In this document: one piece after another, positions 22,818-53,296 of the stretch
Layout of the letters: every line of letters begins with the position of its first letter
Numbering within the stretch: position 1 is the first letter of the stretch
Source of the DNA: Acidimicrobiia bacterium
GTDB lineage: Bacteria; Actinomycetota; Acidimicrobiia; Spongiisociales; ZC4RG35
Assembly (NCBI GenBank): GCA_040510135.1
Contig: JBEVJN010000042.1
Location: forward strand, 416-64,415
DNA length: 64,000 bases
Direction of reading: 5' to 3'
Notes under the pieces: generated by a model
Databases searched by the model: none
What the model saw: only the letters and a program-made list of their open reading frames with translations
Told to the model about the DNA's origin: nothing
Made by a program: the position numbers and the translations under genes

Positions 22818-24131
22818 ATGTCCGTTGATACTGTGTCCGGGCGAGTGACCGACCTCCCCTACGCCCGTGTCCGCTTCCTCTGGCCTGATCATCTTGGCTT
22901 GGCCCGGGGCAAGTACCTCGCGGCAGCCCGCGCCTCCGAAGGCTCGAACCACTGCGTCGCCCTGTTCTCACTTCAGCTGAACCGCGTGATGATCCCCTTC
23001 CCCGGGGCACATCACGAGAGCTTCCCCGATGTCGAAGCGCGGTTCGACACCGATGCGATCAGACCAGGGTGGGAGAAGGACACGGGAGTCGTGGTCGCCT
23101 CCATCACCAAGGAGGGCGTGCCGGTTGAGCTGGCGCCCCGGTCGATCCTGGAACGAGTCGTTGGTGAATGGCGAACCGCGGGCTACGACCCGATGGTCGG
23201 GCTCGAGCTAGAGGCGTTCCTCTTTGAGCCCAACGGGGACCGGGGTTGGGCTCCGATACACTCCCCCGGCTCGTACGTATATGGGACCGGGACCTCGGTA
23301 GACCCCAGCGGGACGATCGAAGAGATCATGCAGACCGCTTACGCAATGGGCATCGAGTTGGAATCGGTCAACTCCGAGTACGACGACGGCCAGTTCGAGC
23401 TCACCCTGCGCTATGGAGAGGCGCTGAAGGCAGCCGACGATGCGTTCTTGTTCAAGGTCATGGCCCGGGAGGTGGCGGCCCGCCGCGGATACCTGCTCGC
23501 TTTCATGGGTAAGCCCATCACAGATCGGGGCGGAAGCGGCATCCATGTCAACTTCTCCCTCCTCGCCGAAGACGGGAAGAATGCTCTCGCCGACGAATCG
23601 GCGCGAGACGGCCTCAGCGATCTGGCCCGACGATGCATCGCGGGCATCGTCCACGACCATGTCTCGATGTCAGCGCTGGTGGCGCCGACCGTCAACGCCT
23701 ACAAGCGACTTCGCCCGGGCTCACTCAATGGCTTCTACGCCAACTGGGGATTTGATCATCGGGGTGTCGCTCTCCGGGTGCCGCCGGCCCGGGGCCGCGC
23801 CACCAGGCTGGAGCACAGACTTGCCGACGGTGCAGCCGGGGCTCACCTGGCCACAGCCGCAACCCTGCTGGCGGCGCTGCGAGGAGTGACGAAGGGCCTG
23901 GAATGCCCTCCGGCCGAGACCCAGGACTGCATCACCGGCGCCGACGCCGATGTCACCGTCCCCGCGGACCTGGGGGCAGCTCTGGACGCGTTGGAGACAG
24001 ACAAGGACTTCGTCGAGGCATTCTCACCCGCATATGTCGAAGGTTTCCTGGCCGTGAAACGGGCCGAGTGGGAGCGCTTCCGACAGCACACGACCGACTG
24101 GGAGATCGCCGAATACCTGGAGTACTACTAG
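22818..24131 (+). CDS. Glutamine synthetase family protein (GlnA3/PuuA-like gamma-glutamyl ligase)
   Basis: GLELEAFLF...NSEYDDGQFEL...GSGIHVNFSL...NAYKRL are GS catalytic-domain motifs. Start trimmed to ATG 22818. Confidence 0.85.
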   Translation: MSVDTVSGRVTDLPYARVRFLWPDHLGLARGKYLAAARASEGSNHCVALFSLQLNRVMIPFPGAHHESFPDVEARFDTDAIRPGWEKDTGVVVASITKEGVPVELAPRSILERVVGEWRTAGYDPMVGLELEAFLFEPNGDRGWAPIHSPGSYVYGTGTSVDPSGTIEEIMQTAYAMGIELESVNSEYDDGQFELTLRYGEALKAADDAFLFKVMAREVAARRGYLLAFMGKPITDRGGSGIHVNFSLLAEDGKNALADESARDGLSDLARRCIAGIVHDHVSMSALVAPTVNAYKRLRPGSLNGFYANWGFDHRGVALRVPPARGRATRLEHRLADGAAGAHLATAATLLAALRGVTKGLECPPAETQDCITGADADVTVPADLGAALDALETDKDFVEAFSPAYVEGFLAVKRAEWERFRQHTTDWEIAEYLEYY

Positions 24132-24326
24132 TAGTCGGTGGGACCGGGGGATGGTGGAAGGTCAAGAAGCGGGACGGATCGGGCGGGGTGGGGCTTGTGC
24201 TCGCCGAGGGAGGCGGGAGCGGTTTCCAGACCCGTCCCACGTTCTTGACTTTCCAAGCCGGGTTGGTTACCCCGCCCCGCCAACCCTCAAACAACTTTCT
24301 CTTCGGCTCGGTGACCCCGGCGCGAC

Positions 24327-24356
24327 GATGCCCGGGCCGTGACGAGCCCGGGCATC
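24327..24356. terminator. Bidirectional terminator-like hairpin between convergent genes
   Basis: GATGCCCGGGC-cgtgacga-GCCCGGGCATC, a perfect 11-bp stem with an 8-nt loop, 14 nt from the stop of the minus-strand SHOCT gene. Confidence 0.5.
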
Positions 24357-24369
24357 GCGGCAGTGATAC

Positions 24370-24744
24370 TCAGCTGAGGAGCTTGGCCTTCTGGGCGGCG
24401 AACTCCTCGTCGGTGATGACCCCCTGGCTCTGCAGCTTGGCCAGTTTCTCCAGTTCGTCAGCAGACGAGGCAGCGCTCGAAGCGGATACCTGCTGGATGT
24501 ACTCTCTTTGCGCTTTCTCCTGCTGCACCGCTTGAGCCATCGCGCGCTCCTGCATCGAGCCGCCGCGGGCGATCAGGTAGATCAACACTCCGAGCCAGGG
24601 CAGGATCACGACAAAGATCGTCCAGAACGCCTTCCCCCACCCACTGAGGTCGTGGCTGCGGAAGATGTCGGAGAAGATCATGATGAGCAGCCAGATCCAG
24701 GCAAAGAACAAGAAGAACCAGAGCATGCTCCAGAACAGATCCAT
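24370..24744 (-). CDS. Membrane protein with PLD-nuclease-N-like TM pair and a C-terminal SHOCT domain
   Basis: Two TM helices (LWFFLFFAWIWLLIMIFSDI; FWTIFVVILPWLGVLIYLI) and the SHOCT motif ELEKLAKLQSQGVITDEEFAAQKAKLL. The start is uncertain: ATG 24744, GTG 24753 or TTG 24795. Confidence 0.7.
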   Translation of the reverse strand: MDLFWSMLWFFLFFAWIWLLIMIFSDIFRSHDLSGWGKAFWTIFVVILPWLGVLIYLIARGGSMQERAMAQAVQQEKAQREYIQQVSASSAASSADELEKLAKLQSQGVITDEEFAAQKAKLLS

Positions 24745-24912
24745 TAAGGGCACGACGCCACCTTTCTTATTTCGTTGGCTCTTGGAGACGGCCAACTATT
24801 CCATTTCACGGCGATGCTACATCCTCCGAGATGCCCTCAATCACCCAGATCGGGCGAATACTCTCTAGGTTTGGCAGTCCAGAATCGACCTGGCCGAAAA
24901 TAGGAGGAGCAA

Positions 24913-25311
24913 ATGACCCAAGAAACCAGCGGTTGGGCGGTCGGTTGGACCACCTTTGCCGCCTTGATGATGATCATGATCGGCTTCTGGCACGCAATCG
25001 CCGGACTGGTTGCCCTCTTCGAGAACGAGTTCTATGTCGTCGGCACGGAGTATGTGTTCCAGCTCGATGTGACCACCTGGGGTTGGATCCACCTGATCCT
25101 CGGCATCGTTGTGATCCTCGCCGGTGTGGCCCTCTTCAGCGGCGCGGTTTGGGCAAGGACGATCGGGGTGATCCTGGCAGTGGTGAGTGCAATCGCCGCT
25201 TTCGCCTGGCTTCCCTACTACCCGCTCTGGGGCGGGCTGATCGCTGCCGCGGCCATCTTCGTCATTTGGGCGCTGACCGCCCATGGACGAGACATCGTCC
25301 AGGGCGTGTGA
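24913..25311 (+). CDS. Four-TM membrane protein (DUF7144-like)
   Basis: SD AGGAGG before the ATG. Sequence WAVGWTTFAALMMIMIGFWHAIAGLVALFENEFY... with four hydrophobic helices. Confidence 0.65.
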   Translation: MTQETSGWAVGWTTFAALMMIMIGFWHAIAGLVALFENEFYVVGTEYVFQLDVTTWGWIHLILGIVVILAGVALFSGAVWARTIGVILAVVSAIAAFAWLPYYPLWGGLIAAAAIFVIWALTAHGRDIVQGV

Positions 25312-26743
25312 TCAACAGTTGACCACCACGAGCGACACGACGACGGACAGGTCCAGGCCACGCAAGTGGATCGCGGTCCTGCTCGTCGTCGTGTCCTCGA
25401 TTTTCGTGGTGATCTCGGCGGTGGCGGTTTGGGCCCATCGCACCATCTTCGACACAGACGTCTTCATGGCGACAATCGAGCCCGCCATCGAAGACCCCCA
25501 GTTCACGGCTGCCTTGGGTGATTATCTGACCGATGAGATCACCAGCGCGCTGGACCTGGAGCAGCGACTCCAGGAGCCGCTGCAGAATCTGGATGCCTTC
25601 CTGACCTCCGCGTTGTTCGGGTTGCTCGGCATCGATGAGGGAACACTGGGCTTCCTCGGCCAAATCGACCGCCCCACCCTGGCCGCTCTGGCCGGCCCCA
25701 TCGCCGATGAGCTCAATGGACGGATCGAAATGAGAGTGGACCAGGTCGTTGAATCCAACGAGATGGCCGAGCTGATCCCCCAGGTGGTGAGAAGGGCCCA
25801 TCAGGGTGCCGTCGCCTTGTTGCGCGGCGACATCGAAGAGACCCCCAACATCTCCATCACAGAGGGGGAAGTTCGTCTCAACACGTTGCCGATCATCGCC
25901 ACGGTGTTGCAGGAGGTCGTCGCGGAGCTGCGCGACGTGCTCCCCGATGTGAACCTGCCCTCGGCCATCTCAGATCGGGTACCCGAGGCAGTCGCCCAGT
26001 TGAAGGAGTCGCTCGGGGATCGGATACCCGATGACTTCGGGCAGATCGCCCTGATGTCCGAAGAACGGCTGACCGCGGCCCAGGCTTCGGCCGACCGAAT
26101 CGATCGCTGGGTGTGGGGCATCGTGATCCTCACCATCGCCCTGATCGTCATCACGATGTTCGTGTCGCAAACGCGTCGCCGGACCGGCATCCAGCTCGCG
26201 ATTGGGATCGCGGTGGCTTTTGTCGTGTCTGCCGCAGTGGTCAACCGTGTCGAGTCCGCGCTGGTCGCCGAAATCGCCGACCCGGTTGCGGGAGAGACCG
26301 CCGCCGTCCTGATCGGTCATCTCCTCGCCGGTCTGCGCAATGGGATTATCGCCGTGATCGTCATCTCGACGGTGATCGCGCTGGTGCTCTATCTGGTCAG
26401 CCGACCTCAGTGGGTCACTACCACCGGCGAAAAGGTCAGCACCGTCATGCCCGGGAGCTCAGAGACCGGTGGCATGAATCGATGGATCGCCGGTCATTAC
26501 GACCTGCTCAGGATCGGTGCGGTGGCAATCGCCCTGGTGGCTCTCTTTCTCATCGGTTTCGGATGGGTCGCCGTCCTCGTGATCGGAGCGCTGCTCGCTC
26601 TCGTCCTCCGGTGGCTGGCACAGGCCCGGGACGCGGCCGATGCGCTGCCCGAGATGTTGGCGGTGAGCGACCCAGAGCAGATCGAGACGGTCAGCGACCT
26701 AGAGCAGATCGAGACGGTCAGCGACCCAAAGCCCGACGTCTAG
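25283..26743 (+). CDS. Large integral membrane protein of unknown function
   Basis: One N-terminal TM helix, a soluble region of about 230 aa, several C-terminal TM helices and a repeat-containing acidic tail. No family recognised. Confidence 0.6.
   Translation: MDETSSRACDQQLTTTSDTTTDRSRPRKWIAVLLVVVSSIFVVISAVAVWAHRTIFDTDVFMATIEPAIEDPQFTAALGDYLTDEITSALDLEQRLQEPLQNLDAFLTSALFGLLGIDEGTLGFLGQIDRPTLAALAGPIADELNGRIEMRVDQVVESNEMAELIPQVVRRAHQGAVALLRGDIEETPNISITEGEVRLNTLPIIATVLQEVVAELRDVLPDVNLPSAISDRVPEAVAQLKESLGDRIPDDFGQIALMSEERLTAAQASADRIDRWVWGIVILTIALIVITMFVSQTRRRTGIQLAIGIAVAFVVSAAVVNRVESALVAEIADPVAGETAAVLIGHLLAGLRNGIIAVIVISTVIALVLYLVSRPQWVTTTGEKVSTVMPGSSETGGMNRWIAGHYDLLRIGAVAIALVALFLIGFGWVAVLVIGALLALVLRWLAQARDAADALPEMLAVSDPEQIETVSDLEQIETVSDPKPDV
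26666..26732 (+). repeat. In-frame 27-nt tandem repeat (about 2.5 copies) at the 3' end of the membrane protein gene
   Basis: agcgacccagagcagatcgagacggtc / agcgacctagagcagatcgagacggtc / agcgacccaaagc, encoding SDPEQIETV-SDLEQIETV-SDPKP. Confidence 0.85.
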
Positions 26744-27027
26744 GTGATCGCCCGGACCCGGCCGTCCACCACCAGCTGGTCGACGATGCCCACCACAACG
26801 GCGCGGACCGCGCCGTGGTCGAGGCCCAATATCTGGCGGGCGGAGCTCCCCTCGTCGAGGATGAGCACGGTGTCGCCCACTCCGGCGTCGACCACATCCA
26901 CTGCGATGGTGTAGCCCGACGGGATCCCGTTGACGTCATGCACGTCGCAGAGGAGGAGCCGGTGCTCTTCGAGCAACGGGATGTTGATCGTCGAGATCAC
27001 GGTCCCCGCGACTCTTCCCACCTTCAT
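26740..27027 (-). CDS. BMC-P pentamer vertex protein (EutN/CcmL family), paralog 3
   Basis: MKVGRVAGTVISTINIPLLEEHRLLLC...VVDAGVGDTVLILDEGSSARQ is the canonical EutN/CcmL sequence. Its ATG directly follows the upstream TGA. Confidence 0.9.
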   Translation of the reverse strand: MKVGRVAGTVISTINIPLLEEHRLLLCDVHDVNGIPSGYTIAVDVVDAGVGDTVLILDEGSSARQILGLDHGAVRAVVVGIVDQLVVDGRVRAIT

Positions 27028-27303
27028 TCATTCCTCCTCGAGATTGACGTCGTCGACGATCCCGACAATTGCATGATCGACGGGGACGAACCGCTCGGGC
27101 AAAGCTTCGGCCGCCTCTCGGGACGCGACGAAATAGACGAGTTCACCCGCCCCGGCCATCGAGACTGCGTCGGCGGCGACCAGAGTCTCGCCACTGGGCT
27201 GGCCCGCTTTGTCGAGCGGTTGCACGATGAGTAAGCGAATCGCCTCCAGGCCGGGCGCTTTTTCGGTCGCAACGACACTGCCGAGGACACGACCCAGCTG
27301 CAC
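27028..27303 (-). CDS. BMC-P pentamer vertex protein (EutN/CcmL family), paralog 2
   Basis: GTG 27303 preceded by GGGGAGGA. Sequence VQLGRVLGSVVATEKAPGLEAIRLLIVQPL...GELVYFVASREAA. The upstream part of the 181-aa ORF overlaps the BMC-T gene and is rejected. Confidence 0.85.
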   Translation of the reverse strand: MQLGRVLGSVVATEKAPGLEAIRLLIVQPLDKAGQPSGETLVAADAVSMAGAGELVYFVASREAAEALPERFVPVDHAIVGIVDDVNLEEE

Positions 27304-27304
27304 C

Positions 27305-27910
27305 TCATCCTCCCCTTGCGGGCGCAGACACGCGGCTGAGGAATCGAAGCTCGGCACGGAGATTCTCGGCCATCTCCTCGTGCAGCTGGGCGATGAGGTC
27401 GCTGCGGACCAGAGTGCCGTGGCCCTCGACCCGTTCGACGGCGGCGGCAAGGGCCGCCTCGACCTCGGCGACCACACCTGAGAAGAGGACATAGCCTTTG
27501 CCCCCCAACCCGTCGGAGAGACGAATCGCGGCCAGATCGACTTCGGCGGCTTTTGCGCCCGCATCGGCGCCATCGATGGCGGCTGCAGCCGTGGTCGTCT
27601 CGATGACCCCCAGTGCCTCTTCGCCTACAGGAGCCCGGGAAGCATTCCCCGCGATGGCGGACGCAACAGCAGGATGGACGTCGGGGAGGAAGACCATGTC
27701 GGTCAGCGAGTGCGATTCATTGCCCACGTGCACCGCCTCGTCGACGCTGGCCGTGTCACCTGTCACCAGCACCAGGTATTTACCCGGATGCACCGTTCCC
27801 GCGTAGATGGCGCCCAAAGGGGCCGTCTTCACCATGGCGTCACCGGCGACGATGCCGGCGCTGATCGAATCGAATTCGAAAAGGGCGATGGCGGAGTCGC
27901 GGTCAAACAA
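27305..27910 (-). CDS. BMC-T tandem-domain shell protein (single-layer trimer type)
   Basis: Two BMC domains: AIALFEFDSISAGIVAGDAMVKTAP... and ALGVIETTTAAAAIDGADAGAKAAEV... About 200 aa, as in H. ochraceum BMC-T1. Confidence 0.85.
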   Translation of the reverse strand: MFDRDSAIALFEFDSISAGIVAGDAMVKTAPLGAIYAGTVHPGKYLVLVTGDTASVDEAVHVGNESHSLTDMVFLPDVHPAVASAIAGNASRAPVGEEALGVIETTTAAAAIDGADAGAKAAEVDLAAIRLSDGLGGKGYVLFSGVVAEVEAALAAAVERVEGHGTLVRSDLIAQLHEEMAENLRAELRFLSRVSAPARGG

Positions 27911-29360
27911 TGCGCAGGGCCCCGACCACCGTCACTCGCCGCACCCGGGAGAAGGTGCGAGGCCGGGTCAAACCCTCCCCGGTCGGGCTGGCGATCGAGA
28001 AGGAGGTGAACCCCTCCCCACCCTCACCCAGGCCGTTGAAGTTGGAGCCATTGGCCACGAAGATGCTGCAGTTCATGGCCCGAGCCATCCTGGTGATGGT
28101 CTCGACGTTGGTGCTGTGGATCGAGGCCGTATGGCGAAATCCGTGCTCGGATCGCACGGCCAGGTCGATGGCATCGTCCACGTTGCTCACCCGGACCACC
28201 GGCATCACCGGCATCATCTGCTCGGTCCACACCAGGTTGTGATCGCGGGAGACTTCGGCGACGAGCAGACGCGTGTCCTCTCCGGACGTCACTCCGATCT
28301 CGGCGAGGATCCTGGCCGCATCCTTGCCGATCCACTCCGGGTTGATCATCCCCGGCTTCTCGGGCGGGCCCATTTCCTTGAAGATGATTCGCTCCAAGCG
28401 CTTGAGCTCATGCTCCTTGAGGCGGTAGGCGCCCGCCGCCACCATCGCCTGCACAAGGCGGTCGGCCACGGTGTCGACCACGATCGTGGTCTTCTCGTCG
28501 GTGCAGATCACGTTGTTGTCGAACGAGGCGCCCCGCACGATGGCCCGGCCCGCCGCCTCTATATCGGCGGTCTGGTCAACGACCGCCGGTGGGTTGCCCG
28601 GCCCGGCAGTGATCGCTTTCTTGCTCGTCTTCAAGGCCTCCTTGACCACACCCGGCCCCCCGGTGACGAGCAGCACCCTGACCTCGGCGTGATTCATCAA
28701 CTCTTTGGCCGTCTCCAGGGTCGGCGACGGGATAGCGGTGACCAGGTCGGGAGGGCCGCCGGCGCCGACGATGGCCCTGTTGAGGAGTTGCACGTTCTCC
28801 ACTGAGACCATCCGGGCGTTGGGATGGACGTTGAAGGTGACGGCGTTGCCCGCCGAGACGATGGCTATGGCATTGTTGATGATCGTCGACGTCGGATTTG
28901 TGGTGGGGGTGATGGACCCGATGACCCCGTATGGGGCGAACTCGGTGACCATCATCCCGGAGTCTCCGGTCACAACCTGAGGCTCCAGGTCCTCGGGCCC
29001 GGGGGTCTTGGTCGTCACCAGGCGGTTCTTGATCGCCTTGTCCTCCCCGCGCCCCAGGCCGGTCTCCTCGGCAGCCATGTATCCGAGGCGCTCGCCTTCA
29101 CGCAGCATGGCGGCGCGCATGGCCTCGACGATGGTCTTCCGCGCTCCGAGCCCCATCTCGCGATAGTCGACGAACGCGGCTCTGGCTGCGGTCACTGCGG
29201 CGTCGATATCGGTGTGGATCCCGTCACCGAGCTCGACCTCCGACACCGCGAGCTCGTCCGCAGCGCGCAACGCCGGCGCCGTCCGCCCCGAAATCTCGGC
29301 GGCGGCCACTCGACCCCTGACCCGCTCGATGATGGCCTGTATCTCTGTGTCGCTCAGCAT
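27903..29360 (-). CDS. CoA-acylating aldehyde dehydrogenase (PduP/EutE-like) with an N-terminal encapsulation-peptide-like helix
   Basis: Catalytic FDNNVICTDEK, ITAGPGNPP and the C-terminus TFSRVRRVTVVG, all typical of BMC AldDh. The N-terminus is MLSDTEIQAIIERVRGRVAA. Start trimmed to ATG 29360, 2 nt after the upstream stop. Confidence 0.9.
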   Translation of the reverse strand: MLSDTEIQAIIERVRGRVAAAEISGRTAPALRAADELAVSEVELGDGIHTDIDAAVTAARAAFVDYREMGLGARKTIVEAMRAAMLREGERLGYMAAEETGLGRGEDKAIKNRLVTTKTPGPEDLEPQVVTGDSGMMVTEFAPYGVIGSITPTTNPTSTIINNAIAIVSAGNAVTFNVHPNARMVSVENVQLLNRAIVGAGGPPDLVTAIPSPTLETAKELMNHAEVRVLLVTGGPGVVKEALKTSKKAITAGPGNPPAVVDQTADIEAAGRAIVRGASFDNNVICTDEKTTIVVDTVADRLVQAMVAAGAYRLKEHELKRLERIIFKEMGPPEKPGMINPEWIGKDAARILAEIGVTSGEDTRLLVAEVSRDHNLVWTEQMMPVMPVVRVSNVDDAIDLAVRSEHGFRHTASIHSTNVETITRMARAMNCSIFVANGSNFNGLGEGGEGFTSFSIASPTGEGLTRPRTFSRVRRVTVVGALRIV

Positions 29361-29362
29361 CG

Positions 29363-29674
29363 CTATCGCGTACGACCCTCCTCCCGGCCCTTGTGGTATC
29401 GCTCCTCGCCACCCACGTCCCATGAGTCCACAATCGCCATGACCACAGCGTCTACCGGTCGGTCACGGGTGAGCTCGGTCTGACGCGCCGAGCTGCCCGA
29501 GGCATACAAGACGATCTCTCCCTCGCCTGCCCCGACCGCATCCACAGCCACGACGTAGCTCCCGGTCTCTGCGTTGTCCGCGTCGAGTTGCCGTACGACC
29601 AGCAGCTTCATCCCCTCCATGAGGGGCTCTTTCCTGCTGGCGACCAGAGTCCCGGCGACGCGGCCTAGATGCAC
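29363..29674 (-). CDS. BMC-P pentamer vertex protein (EutN/CcmL family), paralog 1, with a charged C-terminal tail
   Basis: GTG start after AGGAGG. Sequence [29 protein letters not shown]...[14 protein letters not shown], with the tail [16 protein letters not shown]. Confidence 0.9.
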
Positions 29675-29710
29675 GGTGCGACCTCCTGCCCGGTTCGAAC
29701 TCGGATTCCG

Positions 29711-30013
29711 CTAACCGAGGTCGTCCTGCGCCTGGTCCTGACGACCCAGCGGGAGCACCAGATCGATGTTGACGTGGGGCCGGGCGATGACGTGCGTGGC
29801 GACGACCTCGCCCACCTTCTCCGCACCGCGAACTCCAGCGTCGACCGCCGCCTTGACTGCGGCGACATCACCACGAACCACGGCGGTGACGTATCCGCCA
29901 CCCGTTTTCTCCATGCCCACCAATTCGACCTTGGCCGCCTTGACCATGGCATCTGCCGCTTCCACCATCGCCGGGAAGCTGCGTGCCTCGATCATTCCCA
30001 GAGCTTCAGCCAT
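29711..30013 (-). CDS. BMC-H hexamer shell protein (PduA/EutM-like)
   Basis: [60 protein letters not shown] is a canonical BMC domain. SD AAGGAGGAG. Confidence 0.95.
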
Positions 30014-30048
30014 GAAGCTCCTCCTTTCCTTGTGTTCGACTCATCGGC

Positions 30049-30684
30049 TCAACCAGACCCAGCGTCCCGCCCGGTCAGGCCCTCCAGGGCCGCCACCGCC
30101 GCCTGCCATCCGACATCGATGTCCTGCTCCTCGCCACCGAGATATACCCGGCCCATCGAGCCGAAGCTGCGCACCTCGAGGACATTGATCTCCGCTGCTT
30201 TTTCCGCTTCGTTGGCGGCAAGAGAGGCGTAGGCGGCCGGCTCGCACTCGAGGACATAGAGGGTCTGGCCCGGGATGATCATTTGGCCATGCCGGGTCCG
30301 GTTGATGAGCTGGGCGTGGTGGTCGTCCAGTCGTCGGATGATCTGCGACGAGAGAATGCGCGGCTTGATCCGGTCGTCCTCGCGGCTCTCCATCCCCTCG
30401 AGGATGGCCTCACCGGCCGCTCGGGTGTCTGACTGGTCGGGAGAATGCACCTCGAGGACCCCGTAGTAACGCTCGATGATCTGAAGGCCCGGCTTGACCG
30501 AGGTCGCTTTGAGGGCCACGTCGGTAAGTCTGTTGATCTCGATCCCGGGAGCTACTTCGATCCAGAGGGAGGCATCGCCGGCGAGGGGGAGAAAGCCCTG
30601 GGCCACCGTTCCCAGAAACGCAGCGTATTGAGGCTGGAGACTGTCCAGGAACGCAAACGACCTCAGCTCAATACCTTTCGCCAC
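30049..30684 (-). CDS. BMC-T tandem permuted-domain shell protein (CsoS1D/CcmP-like, double-stacking type)
   Basis: [29 protein letters not shown]...[23 protein letters not shown]... and [33 protein letters not shown] 30684 is preceded by GGAGGGAAGG and overlaps the deoC end by 17 nt. Confidence 0.85.
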
Positions 30685-31498
30685 TGCCTCCGTCCTTCCC
30701 TCCGACGATCTCGATCCCGGCCGACGCCCCGATTCTGGTCGCACCGGCAGCGATCATGTCTTCTGCATCCCCGGTGGTGCGGACGCCTCCCGACGCCTTG
30801 ACCCCCATTTCAGGGCCCACGGTCTCTCGCATCAGAGCCACGTCGTACACCGTGGCTCCTCCGGGACCAAACCCTGTCGATGTCTTGACGAAGTCGGCCC
30901 TTGCCTTCTTGGCCAGCGAGGAGGCGATGACCTTTTCCTCGTCGGTAAGCAAAGCTGTCTCCAGTATGACCTTGCAGAGCGCACCCCCGTCGTGGGCGGC
31001 GTCCACCACCTTTTCGATATCGGTCCCCACCAGCTCATAGTCGCCAGACTTGAGGGCGCCGATATTGAGCACCATGTCGACCTCCCGAGCCCCATCACGC
31101 AGCGCCCGACGCGCCTCCATCGCTTTGATCTCCGGCGTACTCGCCCCCAAAGGGAACCCGATCACGGTGCAGACGGGTACCGACGTGCCTCTGAGGTTCT
31201 CGGCGGCGCGTTTCACCCACGTTGGGTTGATGCACACCGAGGCGAAGTGATACTGCTCCGCCTCGCGGCAGAGTTGATCTATCTCTGCTGCTGTTGCCTC
31301 CGGCTTGAGCAGGGTGTGGTCGATGTAGCGGGCCATGTCCAGGGGCACCTCGGCCGCCTCTCCATGGAACGCCACCCGATCGGCCCCATTGGCGACGACC
31401 TCACGGACCTTCTCACCTGTTTCGCAGACGTCGTTGCCGGCGGCAAGTGCGGCCAGCACCTCACGAGTGACTGCCTCGACGAGGGCCTCCCGGTTCAT
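30668..31498 (-). CDS. deoC: Deoxyribose-phosphate aldolase (DERA) with an N-terminal extension of about 50 aa
   Basis: [11 protein letters not shown]...ASVCINP...[10 protein letters not shown]...DMVLNIG...KVILET...FVKTSTGF, including the Schiff-base Lys. The N-terminus is [25 protein letters not shown] overlap with rpiB. The 376-aa ORF version is rejected. Confidence 0.9.
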
Positions 31499-32124
31499 CG
31501 GTGATCCTGACTCATCTCGGCTTTGGAGTATTGCCGTTCGATGTCGTCGATCTTGGCAACCCGCCGGGCGTGGCGGTCGCCACCCCATTCGACCGACAGC
31601 CACTCCTCGACGATCTGCCAGGCCAGTGCCTCCCCGATCAATCCCGCCCCGAGTGTCAGCACGTTGGCGTGATTGTGCTCGCGGCTGTTCCGGGCCGTGG
31701 ACAGGTCGTAACAGAGGGCGGCTCGCACTCCCGGCACCTTGTTGGCCACCATCGCCGAGCCGATTCCGGCCCCGTCGACGACGATCCCGTAACTGCAAGC
31801 GCCCGTGGCGACCTCTCGGGCGACGGCGTGGGCGAAATCGGGGTAGTCGACCGCCTCGTGGCTGTCCGTTCCGCAGTCGAACACGTCGTATCCGGCCTCC
31901 CTCAGCCGGAACCCGATCCTCTCCTTGAGGGGGAAGCCACCATGGTCTGCTCCGATCGCGACCTTCGGCTTGACTTCTCGGTGTGGAGCCGCCCCGGCCG
32001 GTGGGCCGGTGGTGATCTCAGAGGCAGCTGGCGAGTCGGAAGCGATGACCCCATCGAGGACACGTTCGACAAGGGACCGAACTTCTTGCTCGGAGGGTGA
32101 CCTGGGCCCGGCGGGTGCTGTCAT
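31495..32124 (-). CDS. rpiB: RpiB/LacAB-family sugar-phosphate isomerase with an N-terminal extension of about 55 aa
   Basis: [15 protein letters not shown]...DYPDFA...[25 protein letters not shown]...[13 protein letters not shown]. The N-terminus [18 protein letters not shown] is followed by a Pro/Ala/Gly linker. SD GAGGAGG. Confidence 0.85.
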
Positions 32125-32211
32125 CGCGTTGGCTACGGCCTCCTCACGGGACCCATCCTAGGAAGATGGCCTGACGCCAAGGACCGCGCCGTCTGATGTT
32201 CTTATGATGCG

Positions 32212-32868
32212 GTGATGGTCAACCGGGACCCCGCGTTCCTCTGGGAAACCGAAGCGCTCCGCACCTCGGCGACCCAGGCCCCAACCGCGAGCAGGTTCGC
32301 GTCAGGCGACTGGGTGACCCTTCGAGAGGCCAGCGATGCCACCGGTGTTCAGCTCTCGACACTCCGCAACTGGGCCAGGAAGGGCCGGGTGCCAACCGCC
32401 CTCGAGGAGTCGGCCGAGGGCACCCACCGGATGGTCTCGTTGGACGGGGTGAGGGCGCGGGCCCGGCAGCTCGGCCACCCTGTCGTCGAGCCACGGGCGA
32501 CGACTGAGTCGGTTGCCCCGCCGGCGACGACGTCGCATGTCGACGAGGCAGCCACCCCGCCCCCGGGCACGATGCTGGTGCCGATCGACGCCTGGGACAA
32601 GATGCTCTTGCAGCTTGGGAACCTGCACCAGGCAGGCCAGCAATTGGCGGAGGCCAGAGAACGGGCCGCACGCGCCGAAACCGAAGCCACCTTCCTGCGT
32701 GAGCGTCTCGCCGAGCTGAGAGGACCTCCCGGTCCGCCACCGGAGGACGAGGGCCCGCCACTGGAGGAAACGCAGATCACTGCCGATCCCGAACCGGCAA
32801 GGCCGGTCAGAATGCCCAGATTCACCGCTTATTTGTGGCGAATGGCGGTCTCGGGCCGCCGCAAGTAG
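32212..32868 (+). CDS. MerR/excisionase-type HTH protein with a C-terminal coiled coil (candidate regulator, divergent from the BMC operon)
   Basis: WVTLREASDATGVQLSTLRNWARKGRVP is the HTH. The coiled coil is LQLGNLHQAGQQLAEARERAARAETEATFLRERLAEL. The real start may be ATG 32215, on a leaderless mRNA (TATGAT lies 6 nt upstream). Confidence 0.55.
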   Translation: MMVNRDPAFLWETEALRTSATQAPTASRFASGDWVTLREASDATGVQLSTLRNWARKGRVPTALEESAEGTHRMVSLDGVRARARQLGHPVVEPRATTESVAPPATTSHVDEAATPPPGTMLVPIDAWDKMLLQLGNLHQAGQQLAEARERAARAETEATFLRERLAELRGPPGPPPEDEGPPLEETQITADPEPARPVRMPRFTAYLWRMAVSGRRK

Positions 32869-32878
32869 CAGCCGCGAT

Positions 32879-33913
32879 TCAAGCCGGCCCGCTGATCAGC
32901 CGGTAGGTGACGTCCTGATCGAGAGTCAGGTCCATGACGAAGCCGGCCATCTCGCCGGTCTTCTCGTCGGGGATGTTCATGTCCATCGAGACGCTGGAAC
33001 CAGCCGTGGTCTCCGACTGCCGGGCCAAGCCGGCCTCTGCGTCGAACCAGGTCGTGCTGTCGGCGGTGCTGTCGTCGACGGTGATCAGGAACTGGAGCTG
33101 ATCCAGCAGCGCGTCGATTTCGGCGGTTTCCTCGGCCGGGGCCCCCTCCGGGGCCATGCCACCGATCATGCCGGCGAAGAACTCAGCGAGATCGACCTCG
33201 ATCAATGAAGTGGTCGCATTGCTGTCGATGACGAGAACCTCGGCCCCGTCCAACTCCTCGACACCGGTCACCGTGCTGTTGATGCTCGTCACGATCGGGT
33301 CTTCGCCGGGACCGGTGGTCTCGATCTCGTCCGACCAGGAGTCGCCCACCGTCACTTCCTCGTCGGGCAGTGGGGGGCCGACGAACTGGCCAGGATCCAA
33401 TCCGGGAGCCGGGCTGGCACCGCCACCCAGTGCGCCCAGGCCGCCGAGAAGCCCGCTCATCGGATCCTCGATCTCGGTGCCTTCATGGATGATGTTGCCC
33501 TGTTCGTCTACCACGACGGTGACGTCGATCGGCTCCATCGCGGCAAAGTCGGGGATGTCGCTCGAATCGACGGACTCGCCGTCGACAGTCCCAGAGGCGC
33601 TGACATCGGTGAACTCACCGGTGATGTGCACCTCGAACGTCCCCGGTTCAGGCCCGTCGGATATCGCGTGGGTGAAGGTGGCGGTTCCGGCGATGTCGAC
33701 CGAGGCATCGCCCGGGACATCCTCACCCGCCAGCATGGCGGCTTCGCCCGAGGCAGTCATCTCGATGTGCTGGTCGAGCCCGACCTCGTATTGGAACTCG
33801 TCCCCGGAAGTCAGGGTGTAAGAGAGGAGCATGGCATCGGGATTGCTGGATGGCTCGCCGCAGGCTGCGAGGGCGAGCGCGAGCACCGCGACGGGAGCGA
33901 GAAGACGTTTCAT
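32879..33913 (-). CDS. Acidic secreted lipoprotein of unknown function
   Basis: Signal MKRLLAPVAVLALALAAC. The mature part is Asp/Glu/Thr/Gly-rich. No family recognised. Confidence 0.65.
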   Translation of the reverse strand: MKRLLAPVAVLALALAACGEPSSNPDAMLLSYTLTSGDEFQYEVGLDQHIEMTASGEAAMLAGEDVPGDASVDIAGTATFTHAISDGPEPGTFEVHITGEFTDVSASGTVDGESVDSSDIPDFAAMEPIDVTVVVDEQGNIIHEGTEIEDPMSGLLGGLGALGGGASPAPGLDPGQFVGPPLPDEEVTVGDSWSDEIETTGPGEDPIVTSINSTVTGVEELDGAEVLVIDSNATTSLIEVDLAEFFAGMIGGMAPEGAPAEETAEIDALLDQLQFLITVDDSTADSTTWFDAEAGLARQSETTAGSSVSMDMNIPDEKTGEMAGFVMDLTLDQDVTYRLISGPA

Positions 33914-33980
33914 ACCGACACGTTATCGGTGACCGGGGCCTTATCTTTTAGCCCCAAACCGCCTTGTAGCGTCCCGCCTC

Positions 33981-34889
33981 GTGAATCCGTGGACCCCGCT
34001 CGTGGCAGCGATCCTCGGGTGGGGTTCGGCAGCGGTCCTCACCCGTGCTGTCCTCACCAGCGGCGTGTCGCCCTTTGTCGTGGTGCCGATGCGCTTTGGT
34101 GTCGCCCTGGCCGTACTCCTCCTCGTCTCCCTCTTCTGGACCCGCTTCCGTGGGCTCGAGCGACGCCACTGGGCAAGAGGCGTCGTCCTTGGCACGATCG
34201 CCCTGGTCATACCAAACACCCTCTTCACCCTCGGGCTGGTGGAGCTTCCAGTCAACATCGGCGGGCTTCTCATCGCCCTGATCCCGATCGCGACCGTCGG
34301 CGCGGCCCACTTCCTCGTCGAAGGTGAGCTGTTCAATCCACGATCGATTCCCGGTTTGATCACATCCCTGGTCGGGACCGGGATCCTGGTTGGGCTGGGT
34401 GGTGAGGGAATGGAAGGCGTCGGCAATCTTTGGCGAGGTGTCGGCCTCACCTTGATCGGGGTGATCCTCGCCGGAACCGGCGGAGCCCTCACCCGCAGGT
34501 TCGCCCTGGAGGTGGGCGGAGACCGGCTGGTGATACCTCAGTTCGCTACTGCCACGACCCTCGGGGTGCTCGCGACGCCATTCCTCAACACAACTCCGCT
34601 GTCGTCGATCGAGACGCAGCAGTGGGTTTTGCTACTCGCCCTGGGCGTGTTCGCCACGGCGATCCCGTTCACTTCGTTCCTGATCGCCGCCGAGGTGAAT
34701 CCGGCGGCGCGACTCGGCATCGCCGCGTACTTCGTCCCGGTGGTCGCGGTCACTCTGGCGGTCATCTTCCTCGGCGAGAACCTGACCCCAGCCGTGGTCG
34801 TCGGAGCCGTCCTCATCATCAGCGGCGTCATCGTCACCGAGCGCTCCAGCCGTCACGTCCCCGTCCCCGGCGTCGATATCGCCGAGTGA
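33981..34889 (+). CDS. EamA/DMT-family transporter
   Basis: About 10 TM segments in two EamA-like halves. GTG start. Confidence 0.8.
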   Translation: MNPWTPLVAAILGWGSAAVLTRAVLTSGVSPFVVVPMRFGVALAVLLLVSLFWTRFRGLERRHWARGVVLGTIALVIPNTLFTLGLVELPVNIGGLLIALIPIATVGAAHFLVEGELFNPRSIPGLITSLVGTGILVGLGGEGMEGVGNLWRGVGLTLIGVILAGTGGALTRRFALEVGGDRLVIPQFATATTLGVLATPFLNTTPLSSIETQQWVLLLALGVFATAIPFTSFLIAAEVNPAARLGIAAYFVPVVAVTLAVIFLGENLTPAVVVGAVLIISGVIVTERSSRHVPVPGVDIAE

Positions 34890-34918
34890 CACACCGGGGT
34901 CGCGTTTACTCTCCGAGC

Positions 34919-36559
34919 ATGAGTAGGCGGATCTTGGTGGCGGTGGCCTGGCCCTACGCCAGTGGGTCGTTACATCTCGGGCATCTCGGCGGCGCCTACC
35001 TCCCAGCCGACATATTCGCCCGCTACCACCGGATCGCCGGGAACGACGTGCTGATGGTCTCCGGATCCGACGCGCACGGGACCCCGATCACGGTCAAGGC
35101 GGACGAAGAGGGGATCACTCCCCGAGAGGTGGTGGAGCGCTACCACCCCGAGATCCTCGGCTATTGGGAGGCGATCGGGATCTCCTTCGACCTGTTCACG
35201 ACCACGATGACCGATAACCACGCCGCCGTGACCCAGGACATCTTCCTTCGCTTGCTGGAGAAAGGGTATCTGGTCAAAGGGTCGTCCACCCAGTACTTCG
35301 ACCCCGAGGCCGAGCGATTTCTCCCCGACCGTTATGTCGAAGGAACCTGCCCTCATTGCGGTTACTCCCGCGCCCGTGGTGACCAGTGCGAAAACTGCGG
35401 TCGCACTCTCGACGTCACCGACCTGATCGATCCCCGCTCCCGTCTCACCGGGGCCACGCCGGTGCTCAGGGAGACGGAGCACTACTTCTTCAAGCTTCCC
35501 GAGTTCGCCGAACCGCTTCGCGCCTGGCTGGAGTCGAAGACGAGCTGGCGCCGGCATGTGAGGAACTGGGCACTGGGGATGATCGACGAGGGGATGCCGG
35601 AACGGGCGATGACCCGTGACATCGACTGGGGCGTCGAAGTGCCTGTCGACGATCTCGGGCCGGGGAAGCGAATCTATGTGTGGTTCGACGCGGTGATCGG
35701 GTACCTGAGCGCGGCCAAGGAATGGGCGTCGTCGACCGACGATCCCGACGCGTGGAGGACGTGGTGGGAGGACACCGATGCCGAGTCGTACTACTTCGTC
35801 GGCAAGGACAACATCCCGTTCCACACCGTCATCTGGCCGGCGATGTTGATGGGCTACGGCGGGCTCAACCTGCCCACGGATGTCCCGGCTAACCAGTACA
35901 TCACGTTCAAGGGCCAGAAGGCCTCGAAATCCCAGGGGATCGGGCGGTCGATCGGGTGGTACGCACAGCGCCTCGAGCCCGATGCTCTGCGTTATGCCAT
36001 CGCCTCCGTGCTTCCCGAGCAGAACGACACCGACCTCAGCGACGACGACATGATCCGAAGGATCAACGAAGAGCTGGTTGCCACCTGGGGCAACCTGGTC
36101 AATCGGGTTCTTTCGCTGAGCGATCGGAACTTCGAGGGCCGAGTCCCCGACCCGGGACCGCTCACGGCCACCGACGAGGCGCTGGTCGCCTCGATCGACA
36201 AGGCATTGAGCACTGCTGCCGGTCACATCGAGGCAGTCGAGCTACGGGCCGGGCTGCGTGCGGCGATGGACGCTGCCTCGGAGGTCAACGCCTATCTCAA
36301 CTCCGAGGAGCCGTGGCACGTGATGAAGGAGGACCCGAAGCGGGCGGGCACGATTCTGTGGACCGCGATCCAGGCGATTAGCGGGATCCGGGTGGCCCTC
36401 ACCCCCTTCTTGCCGTGGACGTCGGGGCGGTTGGGAGAGATGCTGGGGATCGGCACCGAAGTGACCGGTTGGGAGCGACCCGAGGTGGCCGGGGGCGGCG
36501 ACTTGGGAGTCGTCACGACCCTCTTCACCAAGCTGGATGCCGACGTCTTGGACGACTGA
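34919..36559 (+). CDS. metG: Methionine--tRNA ligase
   Basis: WPYASGSLHLGHLGG (HIGH), zinc knuckle CPHCG...CENCG and the KMSKS-like KASKSQG. Start trimmed to ATG 34919. Confidence 0.95.
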   Translation: MSRRILVAVAWPYASGSLHLGHLGGAYLPADIFARYHRIAGNDVLMVSGSDAHGTPITVKADEEGITPREVVERYHPEILGYWEAIGISFDLFTTTMTDNHAAVTQDIFLRLLEKGYLVKGSSTQYFDPEAERFLPDRYVEGTCPHCGYSRARGDQCENCGRTLDVTDLIDPRSRLTGATPVLRETEHYFFKLPEFAEPLRAWLESKTSWRRHVRNWALGMIDEGMPERAMTRDIDWGVEVPVDDLGPGKRIYVWFDAVIGYLSAAKEWASSTDDPDAWRTWWEDTDAESYYFVGKDNIPFHTVIWPAMLMGYGGLNLPTDVPANQYITFKGQKASKSQGIGRSIGWYAQRLEPDALRYAIASVLPEQNDTDLSDDDMIRRINEELVATWGNLVNRVLSLSDRNFEGRVPDPGPLTATDEALVASIDKALSTAAGHIEAVELRAGLRAAMDAASEVNAYLNSEEPWHVMKEDPKRAGTILWTAIQAISGIRVALTPFLPWTSGRLGEMLGIGTEVTGWERPEVAGGGDLGVVTTLFTKLDADVLDD

Positions 36560-36601: not shown

Positions 36602-36817
36602 ATGGAAATGGAACGGGCAGCCCGCATTGCAGGTGGATTCGCCCTGCTCGGCGCCGGCACTGCCATGCTCGTCCTCCCCGGGCCTGGTGTCCTCGCCATC
36701 CTCGGAGGTCTGACCCTTCTGGAGCGTGACATACCCTGGGCCAAGCGCGTGACCGATCGGATCAGGCCGAAGAAGGCCGGCCCACCCGAGCCGGAGCAGG
36801 ATCAACCAGGCGGGTAG
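36602..36817 (+). CDS. PGPGW-motif small membrane protein
   Basis: MLVLPGPGVLAILGG motif in 71 aa. Its 3' end overlaps sodN convergently by 16 nt. Confidence 0.6.
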   Translation: MEMERAARIAGGFALLGAGTAMLVLPGPGVLAILGGLTLLERDIPWAKRVTDRIRPKKAGPPEPEQDQPGG

Positions 36818-37209
36818 ACCCCCGCGGTCTTCGCCTTCTCGGTCTGCCAGAAGACTCCGGCGATCTCGTCGATGAGATCGACCAACTTCTGGCCATCGGC
36901 CGGGTCCACCGACTTCTTGGCATTGCCCGCCTGCAGGATTGCGCGCCAGAAGAGATCATCGAGGTCGGGGAACTCCTTGCGATGGTCCGCGGTGAAGAAG
37001 TCGACCCAGAGCACCATCAGATGATGCTTGACGAGCTCCGCACGCTCCTCCTTGATCGAGATAGCCCTCGAGCGGAACACCTCGTCGTCCGACGCCTGGT
37101 ACTTCTCGGCTGACTTGAGGACCGACATCGCCTCGATCTTGGCTTGCGCCGGGTCGTACACCCCGCAGAAGAGATCGCAGTGGGCGTGAGCAATCGTTGT
37201 CTGCCGCAT
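36802..37209 (-). CDS. sodN: Nickel superoxide dismutase precursor
   Basis: Pro-peptide MRQTTIAHA followed by the Ni-hook HCDLFCGVYDPA, then a four-helix-bundle sequence. Confidence 0.92.
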   Translation of the reverse strand: MRQTTIAHAHCDLFCGVYDPAQAKIEAMSVLKSAEKYQASDDEVFRSRAISIKEERAELVKHHLMVLWVDFFTADHRKEFPDLDDLFWRAILQAGNAKKSVDPADGQKLVDLIDEIAGVFWQTEKAKTAGVYPPG

Positions 37210-37265
37210 GGCACTCCTTCGTTGTCGAGTTGCTCAGCCGACCATACCCTGCGTGGTCGATTCTC

Positions 37266-44141: not shown

Positions 44142-44720
44142 TCACCTGACGATGCCGTGCGTTGCTGCGGCGACGATGGCGTCGACCAGGCCGCCACGAT
44201 CCAGAGCCCCATCGGGGGAGTACCAGCGTTGCACCGCATTGAGGATGGACAGGATGAATATCGACGCGATCTTGGGATCCGTCCCCGCCCCGAACGTTCC
44301 GTCCTCCGCTCCGTCGGCGATAACGGCCCGAAAAGCCGCCTCGTAGGCATCCCGGGCGGCAATCACACGGGCACGATGCACCTCGTCGAGCATGCGCGCC
44401 TCGTTGAGGAAGGTGCGGACGACATCGGAGTTGTCGACGACCACTGCGACATGGCCGGCAACGAGGCGACGCAGCCTCTCGGCTGCGGTCCCACCCCGGC
44501 CGAGCGCTTCCTCCGCCGAATCCTGGAAGAGACGCGCCCCCTCCTCCACGACCTCGACCAGAAGGTCCTGCTTCGATTCGACATGCGCGTATAGCGACGA
44601 ACCGAGAAGGCCAAGCTCTCGTCCCAGGTCGCGCATCGATGTTCCGTGATAGCCACGCTCCGCAAAAAGCCTCCCGGCAGCGGCCACAACGTCGGAGCGA
44701 CTGTTGCGAGTGGTGACCAT
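44142..44720 (-). CDS. TetR-family regulator (PaaR-like), last gene of the paa operon
   Basis: AAAGRLFAERGYHGTSMRDLGRELGLLGSSLYAHV is the TetR HTH. Start trimmed to ATG 44720 (TGATG junction with paaE). Confidence 0.8.
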   Translation of the reverse strand: MVTTRNSRSDVVAAAGRLFAERGYHGTSMRDLGRELGLLGSSLYAHVESKQDLLVEVVEEGARLFQDSAEEALGRGGTAAERLRRLVAGHVAVVVDNSDVVRTFLNEARMLDEVHRARVIAARDAYEAAFRAVIADGAEDGTFGAGTDPKIASIFILSILNAVQRWYSPDGALDRGGLVDAIVAAATHGIVR

Positions 44721-45790: not shown

Positions 45791-45791
45791 C

Positions 45792-48275: not shown

Positions 48276-48290
48276 GAAGCCAGGTTAACA

Positions 48291-52040: not shown

Positions 52041-52083
52041 CTCGTTGCGCTCCAGGTGTTCGCAATAGGCTTCCGTTTCGCAG

Positions 52084-53271: not shown

Positions 53272-53296
53272 ACATGACGACGAGCGAGGATTTCCC

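Follow-up and report, generated by a model that had tools for sequence, protein, structure and literature searches.

A cluster of nine genes resides on the minus strand of a 64-kb stretch of DNA from an uncultured Acidimicrobiia bacterium (assembly GCA_040510135.1, contig JBEVJN010000042.1, positions 416 to 64,415). This stretch of 64,000 nucleotides, analyzed at its full length, is termed the window, and all coordinates refer to it. Open reading frames (ORFs) between positions 26740 and 32124 encode, in the order of transcription, a RpiB-like protein, DERA (2-deoxyribose-5-phosphate aldolase), the bacterial microcompartment (BMC) shell proteins BMC-T(dp), BMC-H and BMC-P1, a coenzyme A (CoA)-acylating aldehyde dehydrogenase (AldDh), and the shell proteins BMC-T(s), BMC-P2 and BMC-P3. 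The operon of nine genes covers 5.4 kb. The lengths of the gene products (209, 276, 211, 100, 103, 485, 201, 91 and 95 aa, respectively) were the same from an independent gene caller, in three public assemblies with an identical AldDh. An earlier reading of the window by a model from the letters alone, the sequence-only reading, had reported nine minus-strand genes in this order and with these domains. The ORFs at these coordinates, Pfam and NCBIfam confirm it, and profile searches with the Pfam models BMC, EutN_CcmL, Aldedh, DeoC and LacAB_rpiB all yielded matches. A stretch of 3.9 kb encodes the six shell proteins: a single BMC-H, two trimers with tandem BMC domains and three proteins with EutN_CcmL domains. 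Clustered PF00936 and PF03319 genes define a bacterial microcompartment locus, and the predicted proteins place the cluster within this definition. The gene content points to the sugar phosphate utilization (SPU) type, which was named in 2014 and grew in 2021 to seven subtypes with over 280 loci from 26 phyla (Sutter et al., 2021, PMC8217296).

The genes are tightly packed. Direct reading of the sequence revealed overlaps of 4 nucleotides (nt) between rpiB and deoC (ATGA, 31498..31495), 17 nt between deoC and the BMC-T(dp) gene (30684..30668) and 8 nt between the AldDh and BMC-T(s) genes (27910..27903). Gaps of 2 nt and 1 nt separate the genes for BMC-P1 and AldDh and for BMC-T(s) and BMC-P2, respectively. 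The stop codon of BMC-P2 abuts the ATG of BMC-P3 (TGAATG). The overlaps, the 1-2 nt gaps and the TGA-ATG had been described correctly before, together with the proposal of a single translationally coupled unit. Two gaps were not mentioned. The junctions BMC-T(dp)/BMC-H and BMC-H/BMC-P1 comprise 35 and 36 nt, and each contains a GGAGG-type ribosome-binding site. Hence, translational coupling does not apply to every junction of the unit.

The shell proteins were classified by Pfam and Protein Data Bank (PDB) matches, and the classes given in the sequence-only reading were correct. All features of the operon are on the minus strand; values in parentheses are E-values. BMC-H (29711..30013, 100 aa) is a predicted hexamer (Pfam BMC, 3.3e-29) and the only main tile of the shell. 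It resembles the BMC-H HO-5815 of Haliangium ochraceum (HO) (5DJB, 1.6e-41) and retains the edge motifs KAAKV and RPH. BMC-T(dp) (30049..30684, 211 aa) is a permuted, double-stacking, CcmP-like pseudohexamer according to its PDB and NCBIfam matches. The best structural matches were CcmP (4HT5, 3.4e-83), HO-T3 (5V76, 2.3e-72), HO-T2 (5V74, 9.5e-71) and CsoS1D (3F56, 3.3e-54). The difference between CcmP (3.4e-83) and CsoS1D (3.3e-54) places the protein in the CcmP-like clade, a feature of the SPU3 subtype. The permuted protein matched Pfam BMC weakly (3.1e-5), and the domain PF27545 (CsoS1D_N) has been assigned to an identical public protein. The NCBIfam CcmP equivalog was matched with 341.2 bits at a cutoff of 340. 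The gating pair Glu71-Arg72 is kept. A label as 'beta-carboxysome protein CcmP' would be a functional misannotation in this window without carboxysome genes.

BMC-T(s) (27305..27910, 201 aa) is a PduT-like single-layer pseudohexamer with two BMC domains (2.8e-30). It was closest to 3NWG (2.2e-31) and PduT (3VCD, 1.5e-28) and less similar to HO-T1 (1.9e-17). His41 (HPGK) occupies the position of the cysteine that binds the Fe-S cluster in PduT (CPGK), so that the trimer is without a pore cysteine. Three pentamers with EutN_CcmL domains complete the shell: BMC-P1 (29363..29674, 103 aa, 1.1e-29), a predicted vertex protein with similarity to the HO BMC-P of the solved shell 5V74 (7.3e-34), BMC-P2 (27028..27303, 91 aa, 4.6e-23) and BMC-P3 (26740..27027, 95 aa, 6.2e-19). 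Pairwise identities are 40-45%, with BMC-P2 43% identical to BMC-P1 and 40% to BMC-P3; the genes for BMC-P2 and BMC-P3 are adjacent. At its C-terminus (29363-29420), BMC-P1 carries a short charged tail past the EutN fold, the first part of which aligns with the tail of the HO pentamer. This tail is far shorter than the K/R-rich DNA-binding tails reported on Hodarchaeales SPU pentamers.

DERA (30668..31498, 276 aa, including an N-terminal extension of ~52 aa) matched Pfam DeoC (4.9e-15), the NCBIfam deoC equivalog (288.8 bits, cutoff 117.3) and the solved DERA 8QPS (1.2e-85). Asp141, Lys205 (KTSTGF) and Lys234 (KASGG) correspond to D102, K167 and K201 of the Escherichia coli enzyme and are conserved in 67 orthologs. 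The CoA-acylating AldDh (27903..29360, 485 aa, with an N-terminal helix resembling an encapsulation peptide) matched Pfam Aldedh (1.2e-37) and NCBIfam PRK15398, the EutE/PduP-type subfamily (600.8 bits). In the alignment with the BMC-type AldDh 5JFL (3.1e-121), Cys286 (FDNNVICTDEK) is located at the catalytic and modified cysteine. Across orthologs, both enzymes retain their catalytic residues, in 67 sequences for DERA and in 78 for AldDh.

The third enzyme homolog deviates from its family. The RpiB-like protein (31495..32124, 209 aa) consists of an N-terminal helix, a variable linker of ~25 aa and a RpiB fold (Pfam LacAB_rpiB, aa 55-192, 4.8e-52). It matches the solved RpiB from Clostridium thermocellum (3HE8, 2.8e-46), which has VICGTG where VVDGAG is found here. 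Asp117 replaces the catalytic cysteine and Ala119 the adjacent threonine. A serine occupies the position of Glu75 of the Mycobacterium tuberculosis type (GAGIGSA), so that neither canonical RpiB catalytic base is present. His150 is kept and invariant in 66 orthologs. The combination of Cys66 to Asp with a kept His99 (E. coli numbering) is an SPU hallmark, and the exchange of Cys66 has been found in all SPU ribose-5-phosphate isomerase homologs (RPIs) (PMC11585597). Despite the missing catalytic cysteine, the protein passes the NCBIfam rpiB equivalog with 148.9 at a cutoff of 138.65. The equivalog call for such an Asp-variant RPI represents a risk of automated misannotation.

The sequence-only reading had listed the protein as RpiB. 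The exchanges of Cys to Asp and Thr to Ala speak against a working ribose-5-phosphate isomerase, as does the near inactivity of the tested SPU RPI on ribose-5-phosphate. Moreover, at least 16 related genomes contain a second RpiB with the canonical VVCGSGAG, which shares 42-49% identity with the operon copy and is encoded ~4-9 kb downstream of the operon on the opposite strand (loci L038, L033, L057, L043, L039, L041, L049, L066, L062, L056, L060, L061, L065, L046, L042 and L069). The coexistence with a canonical enzyme identifies the operon copy as a diverged paralog rather than an enzyme of the pentose phosphate pathway. Most likely, it serves as a DERA-binding partner in the assembly of the core, perhaps still binding a sugar phosphate.

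The binding pocket of the RpiB-like protein is under strong constraint. Nine of nine pocket positions, including Asp117 and Ala119, are invariant in 66 orthologs with overall identities of 56-87%, while only 41% of the domain positions are equally conserved (hypergeometric P ~2e-4). This invariance speaks for a second interpretation, in which the protein is still catalytically active but carries out an altered reaction. With the carboxylate of Asp117 as base and His150 kept, it would act on a sugar phosphate other than ribose-5-phosphate. To serve DERA, it might open or anomerize the furanose ring of its substrate deoxyribose-5-phosphate; alternatively, it might isomerize a tetrose or triose phosphate product. 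The universal presence of the Asp in SPU RPIs indicates a selected state and not decay. Members of the RpiB family accept varied sugar phosphates, the NCBIfam family of D-erythrulose-4-phosphate isomerases is a relative, and ribose-5-phosphate is the sole substrate that has been assayed on an SPU RPI. On the other hand, isomerase activity was negligible in the single SPU RPI that has been assayed, and its complex with DERA brought no gain in DERA kinetics. An aldose-ketose isomerization of 2-deoxyribose-5-phosphate is impossible, because the C2 hydroxyl group is missing. A role similar to triosephosphate isomerase is disfavored by SPU1 and SPU4, which have a true triosephosphate isomerase besides RPI. 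The conservation of the pocket could equally reflect ligand binding for assembly or regulation. Overall, a changed reaction of this kind is considered unlikely. The same holds for the broader view that the protein is no dead scaffold but has a new enzymatic or sensory activity in the compartment. It might then either present open-chain deoxyribose-5-phosphate to DERA or isomerize a product; we give this view about one chance in a handful. Should such an activity exist, the published two-step SPU pathway would be incomplete by one more catalytic step.

N-terminal extensions, each with a conserved helix and a variable linker, are present on all three proteins and missing from their non-BMC relatives. 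Alignments to solved structures begin at residue 54 (RpiB-like protein), 53 (DERA) and ~22-44 (AldDh). In the RpiB-like protein, aa 12-27 (32044..32091) form an amphipathic helix resembling an encapsulation peptide (EP), detected by hydrophobic moment and conservation. This region has the top helical hydrophobic moment of the whole protein (rank 1/196, 14-mer region) and a mean conservation of 0.66 versus 0.27 in the following linker. The EP-like helix of DERA (aa 3-21, 31436..31492) is conserved in 67 orthologs with a mean of 0.73. Structures of non-BMC DERAs lack it and align only from aa 53 of the query onward. The whole 52-residue extension is conserved and fits the element of a helix plus strands described for all SPU DERAs. 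In AldDh, the EP-like helix comprises aa 4-21, DTEIQAIIERVRGRVAAA (29298..29351), and was recognized by motif and conservation. It follows the pattern [ST]-E-hydrophobic-x-x-hydrophobic-hydrophobic, with a mean conservation of 0.74 versus 0.63 in the linker. This pattern is typical of PduP- and PduD-type EPs. DERA (aa 3-21) and AldDh (aa 4-21) have the helix motif in common. The hydrophobic moment gave a weak signal for DERA and did not discriminate in the case of AldDh; the assignment for these two proteins therefore rests on the conservation pattern and the resemblance to the motif. The alignment of AldDh with 5JFL reaches the last residues of both proteins, a plain family end, and thus leaves no room for a C-terminal EP. 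We infer that the N-terminal helices of DERA, the RpiB-like protein and AldDh are encapsulation peptides that would direct the cargo to the lumen.

Taken together, the locus is interpreted as an SPU3-type catabolic metabolosome, most likely breaking down DNA-derived deoxyribose-5-phosphate, with a probability of about 0.85. By homology, BMC-H would tile the facets of the shell, the PduT-like and CcmP-like trimers would be inserted among the hexamers, and three pentamers would be available for the vertices. DERA and the RpiB-like protein are probably complexed, and the latter would help to build the core. In the cytosol, 2-deoxyribose-5-phosphate would be formed from deoxynucleosides by the products of genes outside the window and then enter the shell. 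DERA, applying Asp141, Lys205 and Lys234, is predicted for this locus to cleave deoxyribose-5-phosphate, yielding glyceraldehyde-3-phosphate, which would leave the compartment, and acetaldehyde. Acetaldehyde would be retained by the shell and converted by AldDh (Cys286) with NAD+ and CoA into acetyl-CoA and NADH. Because the locus has no phosphotransacylase (PTAC), alcohol dehydrogenase or PduS, acetyl-CoA, CoA, NAD+ and NADH would have to cross the shell in exchange. The most plausible passage would be the large pore of the CcmP-like trimer, gated by Glu71/Arg72. Transcription may start from a promoter marked by CCTAGGATG, and a divergently encoded helix-turn-helix (HTH) protein may control the operon. 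The features of the sequences are what this analysis shows; what we infer concerns the substrate used in vivo, how the cargo is packaged, the routes of transport and how the operon is regulated.

The encapsulated route from DERA to AldDh had already been proposed in the sequence-only reading and coincides with the published, best-supported model. The DERA of an SPU6 locus has been purified and was active on deoxyribose-5-phosphate (Dwyer, Sutter, Kerfeld, 2024, PMC11585597). It forms a ~1:1 complex with RPI, which has negligible ribose-5-phosphate isomerase activity (PMC11585597). SPU loci without PTAC typically have a BMC-T(dp), and an exit of acetyl-CoA via its large gated pore has been proposed (PMC11585597). 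A preprint from 2025 describes SPU-type compartments of Hodarchaeales with reconstituted shells (PMC12747264). The statement that such loci have been predicted only computationally, with no substrate demonstrated, is outdated by the active SPU6 DERA (PMC11585597) and the reconstituted shells (PMC12747264).

The enzymes could in principle operate in the reverse direction. AldDh would reduce acetyl-CoA to acetaldehyde as a sink for NADH, and DERA would condense aldehydes to sugar phosphates for storage. The equilibrium of DERA favors synthesis, which is in line with this direction. The missing PTAC and alcohol dehydrogenase depart from the textbook catabolic metabolosome. A condensing model of BMC loci with DERA and RPI has been published for Atribacteria (Nobu et al., 2016, as summarized in PMC6281690). 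However, the organisms behind this model are strict anaerobes that have additional enzymes, e.g. PduS, which are missing here. The window contains genes of an aerobic lifestyle, namely for a Ni superoxide dismutase, ring-hydroxylating and ring-cleaving oxygenases and an F-type ATP synthase, and a fermentative NADH sink would be of little use. AldDh is also closest to the oxidative acylating dehydrogenases of BMCs. A condensing function is therefore regarded as highly improbable.

Several points weigh against the catabolic SPU3 interpretation. The subtype was assigned from a written description, not from the HMMs or trees of the catalogue. The available biochemistry was obtained with an SPU6 homolog, which belongs to another phylum, and none of it with a protein of this or any other SPU3 locus. 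A gene for synthesis or import of deoxyribose-5-phosphate is missing from the 64-kb window, so that the link to DNA scavenging lacks support by the local context. In the searchable literature, no induction in vivo, organelle imaging or growth phenotype was found for any SPU system; the earlier remark on an undemonstrated physiology is in this respect still true in vivo. Cofactor exchange through BMC-T(dp) is a conjecture. Finally, the invariance of the RpiB-like pocket (9/9, P ~2e-4) exceeds what a pure scaffold would need.

The conservation of the operon was assessed with relatives of AldDh, which were found in at least 551 stretches when one genome of each species was scanned. The best 80 of these, with AldDh identities of 71-96%, were analyzed. 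Nearly all of them are metagenome-assembled Acidimicrobiia. The order and orientation of the nine genes were the same in 80 of 80 species-level loci, as far as each contig extends. An identical order in 80 species-level genomes at these AldDh identities indicates that selection acts on the operon as one unit.

Upstream of the operon, the 9-mer CCTAGGATG (32154..32162, minus strand) is located 30 nt before the ATG of rpiB and is conserved across related loci. In 1.14 Mb of related loci searched on both strands, 28 of its 30 occurrences were within 150 nt upstream of rpiB. It is probably a -10 box, with TAGGAT fitting the TANNNT type of actinobacteria; a function as operator is possible. On the plus strand, a divergent gene (32215..32868) encodes a HTH protein of 217 aa from the ATG at 32215, with weak MerR/HTH_17 similarity, a coiled coil and a Pro-rich tail. 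The matches to Pfam MerR (3e-4) and HTH_17 (6.8e-4) are both under the gathering score, and the length of 217 aa is the same in the public gene call. The gene holds the same divergent position in ~55 of the 80 loci. Alignment of the rpiB-HTH intergenic region from 55 loci revealed two conserved blocks, CCTAGGATG and TATGAT. The latter is located at 32203-32208, six bases before the ATG at 32215, which points to a leaderless mRNA for the 217-aa product; the transcript of the HTH gene is thus probably leaderless. From its conserved divergent position, the HTH protein may be a candidate regulator of the locus. Nine more distant loci lack the gene (L044, L047, L055, L063, L064, L067, L072, L076 and L079). 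In L044, the one locus looked at, a same-strand gene pair directly upstream of rpiB (5944-7148) resembles by eye an extracytoplasmic function (ECF) sigma factor and its anti-sigma factor, which hints that regulation is arranged differently there. No Rfam family, riboswitch or leader RNA was detected at 24000-35000 with E up to 0.1. A scan with the sigma-70 consensus, a poor model for an actinobacterium with 65% GC, revealed no promoter and was less informative than the intergenic alignment. The terminator-like hairpins detected were all on the plus strand inside minus-strand genes, hence irrelevant to the operon.

Downstream, the operon is followed by a convergent gene (25283..26743, plus strand) for a multi-pass membrane protein of 486 aa without Pfam match, which is retained in close relatives only. 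Its stop codon and that of BMC-P3 share 4 nt (26740-26743), and no terminator-like hairpin was present between the two genes. The 3' end of the membrane-protein gene (26650-26743) contains a tandem DNA repeat encoding VSDPEQIET / VSDLEQIET / VSDP. Between this gene and a GlnA-like gene, a pair of small membrane proteins is encoded at 24370-25311, one with PLDc_N plus SHOCT (141 aa) and one with DUF7144 (132 aa). A DUF7144 gene likewise adjoins the downstream neighbor of the operon in the public contig L081.

Practically all the remaining ORFs of the window, 50-odd in number, were inspected. They encode Ppx/GppA, enolase, MazG, Mfd, a FGGY kinase, Pth, L25, 6-phosphogluconolactonase, a molybdopterin oxidoreductase, the GlnA-like protein, MetRS, a Ni superoxide dismutase, a 2-oxoacid:ferredoxin oxidoreductase, phenylacetate-CoA oxygenase subunits, an ABC-F protein, protocatechuate 3,4-dioxygenase with pobA- and CMD-type genes, a CoA transferase and ATP synthase. 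The description of a neighborhood of housekeeping and aromatic catabolism in the sequence-only reading agrees with the phenylacetate and protocatechuate genes. None of the ORFs in the 64-kb window encodes a nucleoside phosphorylase, phosphopentomutase or deoxyribokinase, in accordance with the earlier remark that the window has no recognizable uptake or kinase genes for deoxyribose or nucleosides. PTAC (PF06130), a PduS-type protein and an iron alcohol dehydrogenase (PF00465) were likewise not found among the other ORFs, and the window has no second DERA, RpiB, AldDh or shell gene.

Aromatic catabolism is represented by two clusters (44720-48284, 52069-54965 and 56868-58515). The first comprises the phenylacetate-CoA oxygenase subunits PaaA/C and PaaD and a PaaE-type reductase. 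The second forms a protocatechuate branch with a FAD hydroxylase, a CMD-family decarboxylase, the alpha and beta subunits of protocatechuate 3,4-dioxygenase and a two-subunit CoA transferase. At 36802-38231, the gene for the Ni superoxide dismutase is divergent from an ORF with a match to S26 peptidases, probably the maturation protease SodX. The stop-to-stop frame of this ORF runs on into a HhH-GPD base-excision-repair domain, representing two genes or a fusion.

The operon is an Acidimicrobiia instance of the known SPU3 type. The observation made in the sequence-only reading is correct and its functional reading essentially so, but the claim of novelty is not. The locus had been considered the strongest candidate for an uncharacterized organelle of the window; it fits the catalogued SPU3, for which Actinobacteria are listed. 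In Acidimicrobiia, it is a clean example, and a complete one, of an organelle type that the catalogue already contains. The names Acidimicrobiia, Ilumatobacter and Microthrix do not occur in the supplementary files of the 2021 catalogue, tree files included. In the searchable literature, no discussion of microcompartments in Acidimicrobiia was found, with matches in reference lists only. These aerobic actinobacteria of soils and sediments may be a major unrecognized reservoir of the organelle. The small operon, its strict conservation in at least 80 species and the HO-like shell make the locus a convenient SPU3 system for reconstitution. The questions that it raises belong to SPU systems in general: the role in vivo, the recycling of CoA and NAD+ without PTAC, alcohol dehydrogenase and PduS, and the function of the Asp-variant RPI. 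To the latter, the strong constraint on the RPI pocket and the coexistence with a canonical RpiB in related genomes are added here.

Among known systems, other catalogued types share single features with the locus, and its membership in one of them instead of SPU3 is quite improbable. SPU2 has AldDh, RPI, DERA and a CcmP-like BMC-T(dp) too, but typically a fourth BMC-P and a pore cysteine in 80% of its BMC-T(s), and the phyla listed for SPU2 do not include Actinobacteria. SPU6 from Chloroflexi bacterium GWB2_54_36, the only SPU with biochemistry (PMC11585597), also is a small operon without PduS. It shares the RPI-DERA-AldDh core, the D/K/K triad of DERA, the missing PTAC, the RPI with Cys66 to Asp and His99 kept, the N-terminal extensions on DERA and RPI, the BMC-P triplet, the single BMC-H and a BMC-T(dp). 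In contrast to the operon described here with its N-terminal EP-like helix, the AldDh of SPU6 has a C-terminal EP and belongs to another branch of the AldDh tree. Its BMC-T(dp) is of another clade, BMC-T(s) is missing, the regulator is of the GntR/UTRA type, and the subtype is restricted to Chloroflexi, a different phylum. SPU2 and SPU6 were thus rejected on BMC-P count, BMC-T(s), EP position and phylum.

The proteins of the 40-nm HO shell (PDB 5V74) are the closest solved relatives of BMC-H and BMC-P1 and, after CcmP, of BMC-T(dp), which would favor an HO-type locus; a BMC-P triplet and one BMC-H are shared as well. Yet the HO main locus, with AldDh and shell genes, has neither DERA nor RPI, and three trimers (one BMC-T(s), two BMC-T(dp)) in place of two with one BMC-T(dp). 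BMC-T(s) is here nearer to the PduT type than to HO-T1 (2.2e-31 versus 1.9e-17). An HO-type assignment was rejected for the missing DERA and RPI and the single BMC-T(dp). The sequence-only reading had attributed the same enzyme set to the H. ochraceum locus, a parallel which is confined to the shell proteins. Given the HO-like shell proteins, a 40-nm T=9-like shell is a reasonable expectation. CcmP of the beta-carboxysome (4HT5, 5LSR) is the best structural relative of BMC-T(dp), with a Glu-Arg gate and a proposed function as conduit for phosphorylated or bulky metabolites. BMC-T(dp) is narrowly above the NCBIfam CcmP cutoff, as would be expected for a part of a carboxysome. This reading was rejected, since RuBisCO, CcmM/N, CcmK/L/O and carbonic anhydrase are not encoded in the window.

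SPU3 has been described from phyla including Actinobacteria, with AldDh, pfam02502 and pfam01791 as enzymes, pfam02502 being first (PMC8217296, Supplementary Data 2). Its further features are N-terminal EPs on AldDh and aldolase, a BMC-P triplet, a CcmP-like BMC-T(dp), and a BMC-T(s) without pore cysteine and without PduS partner (PMC8217296). By this written description, the locus is very probably an SPU3-type microcompartment. It agrees in the phylum, in the restriction to AldDh, PF02502 and PF01791 with PF02502 upstream of PF01791, and in the N-terminal EP-like helices of AldDh and DERA. The shell agrees in the single BMC-H with standard edge motifs, the BMC-P triplet with two adjacent genes, the CcmP-like BMC-T(dp), and the BMC-T(s) without pore cysteine and PduS partner. 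No satellite genes are needed, and PduS, PTAC and alcohol dehydrogenase are missing from the window. No feature contradicting SPU3 was found; RPI and DERA are separate here and fused in some SPU3 loci. Beyond the catalogue entry, the Acidimicrobiia loci add the conserved divergent HTH gene and the CCTAGGATG element upstream of the operon.

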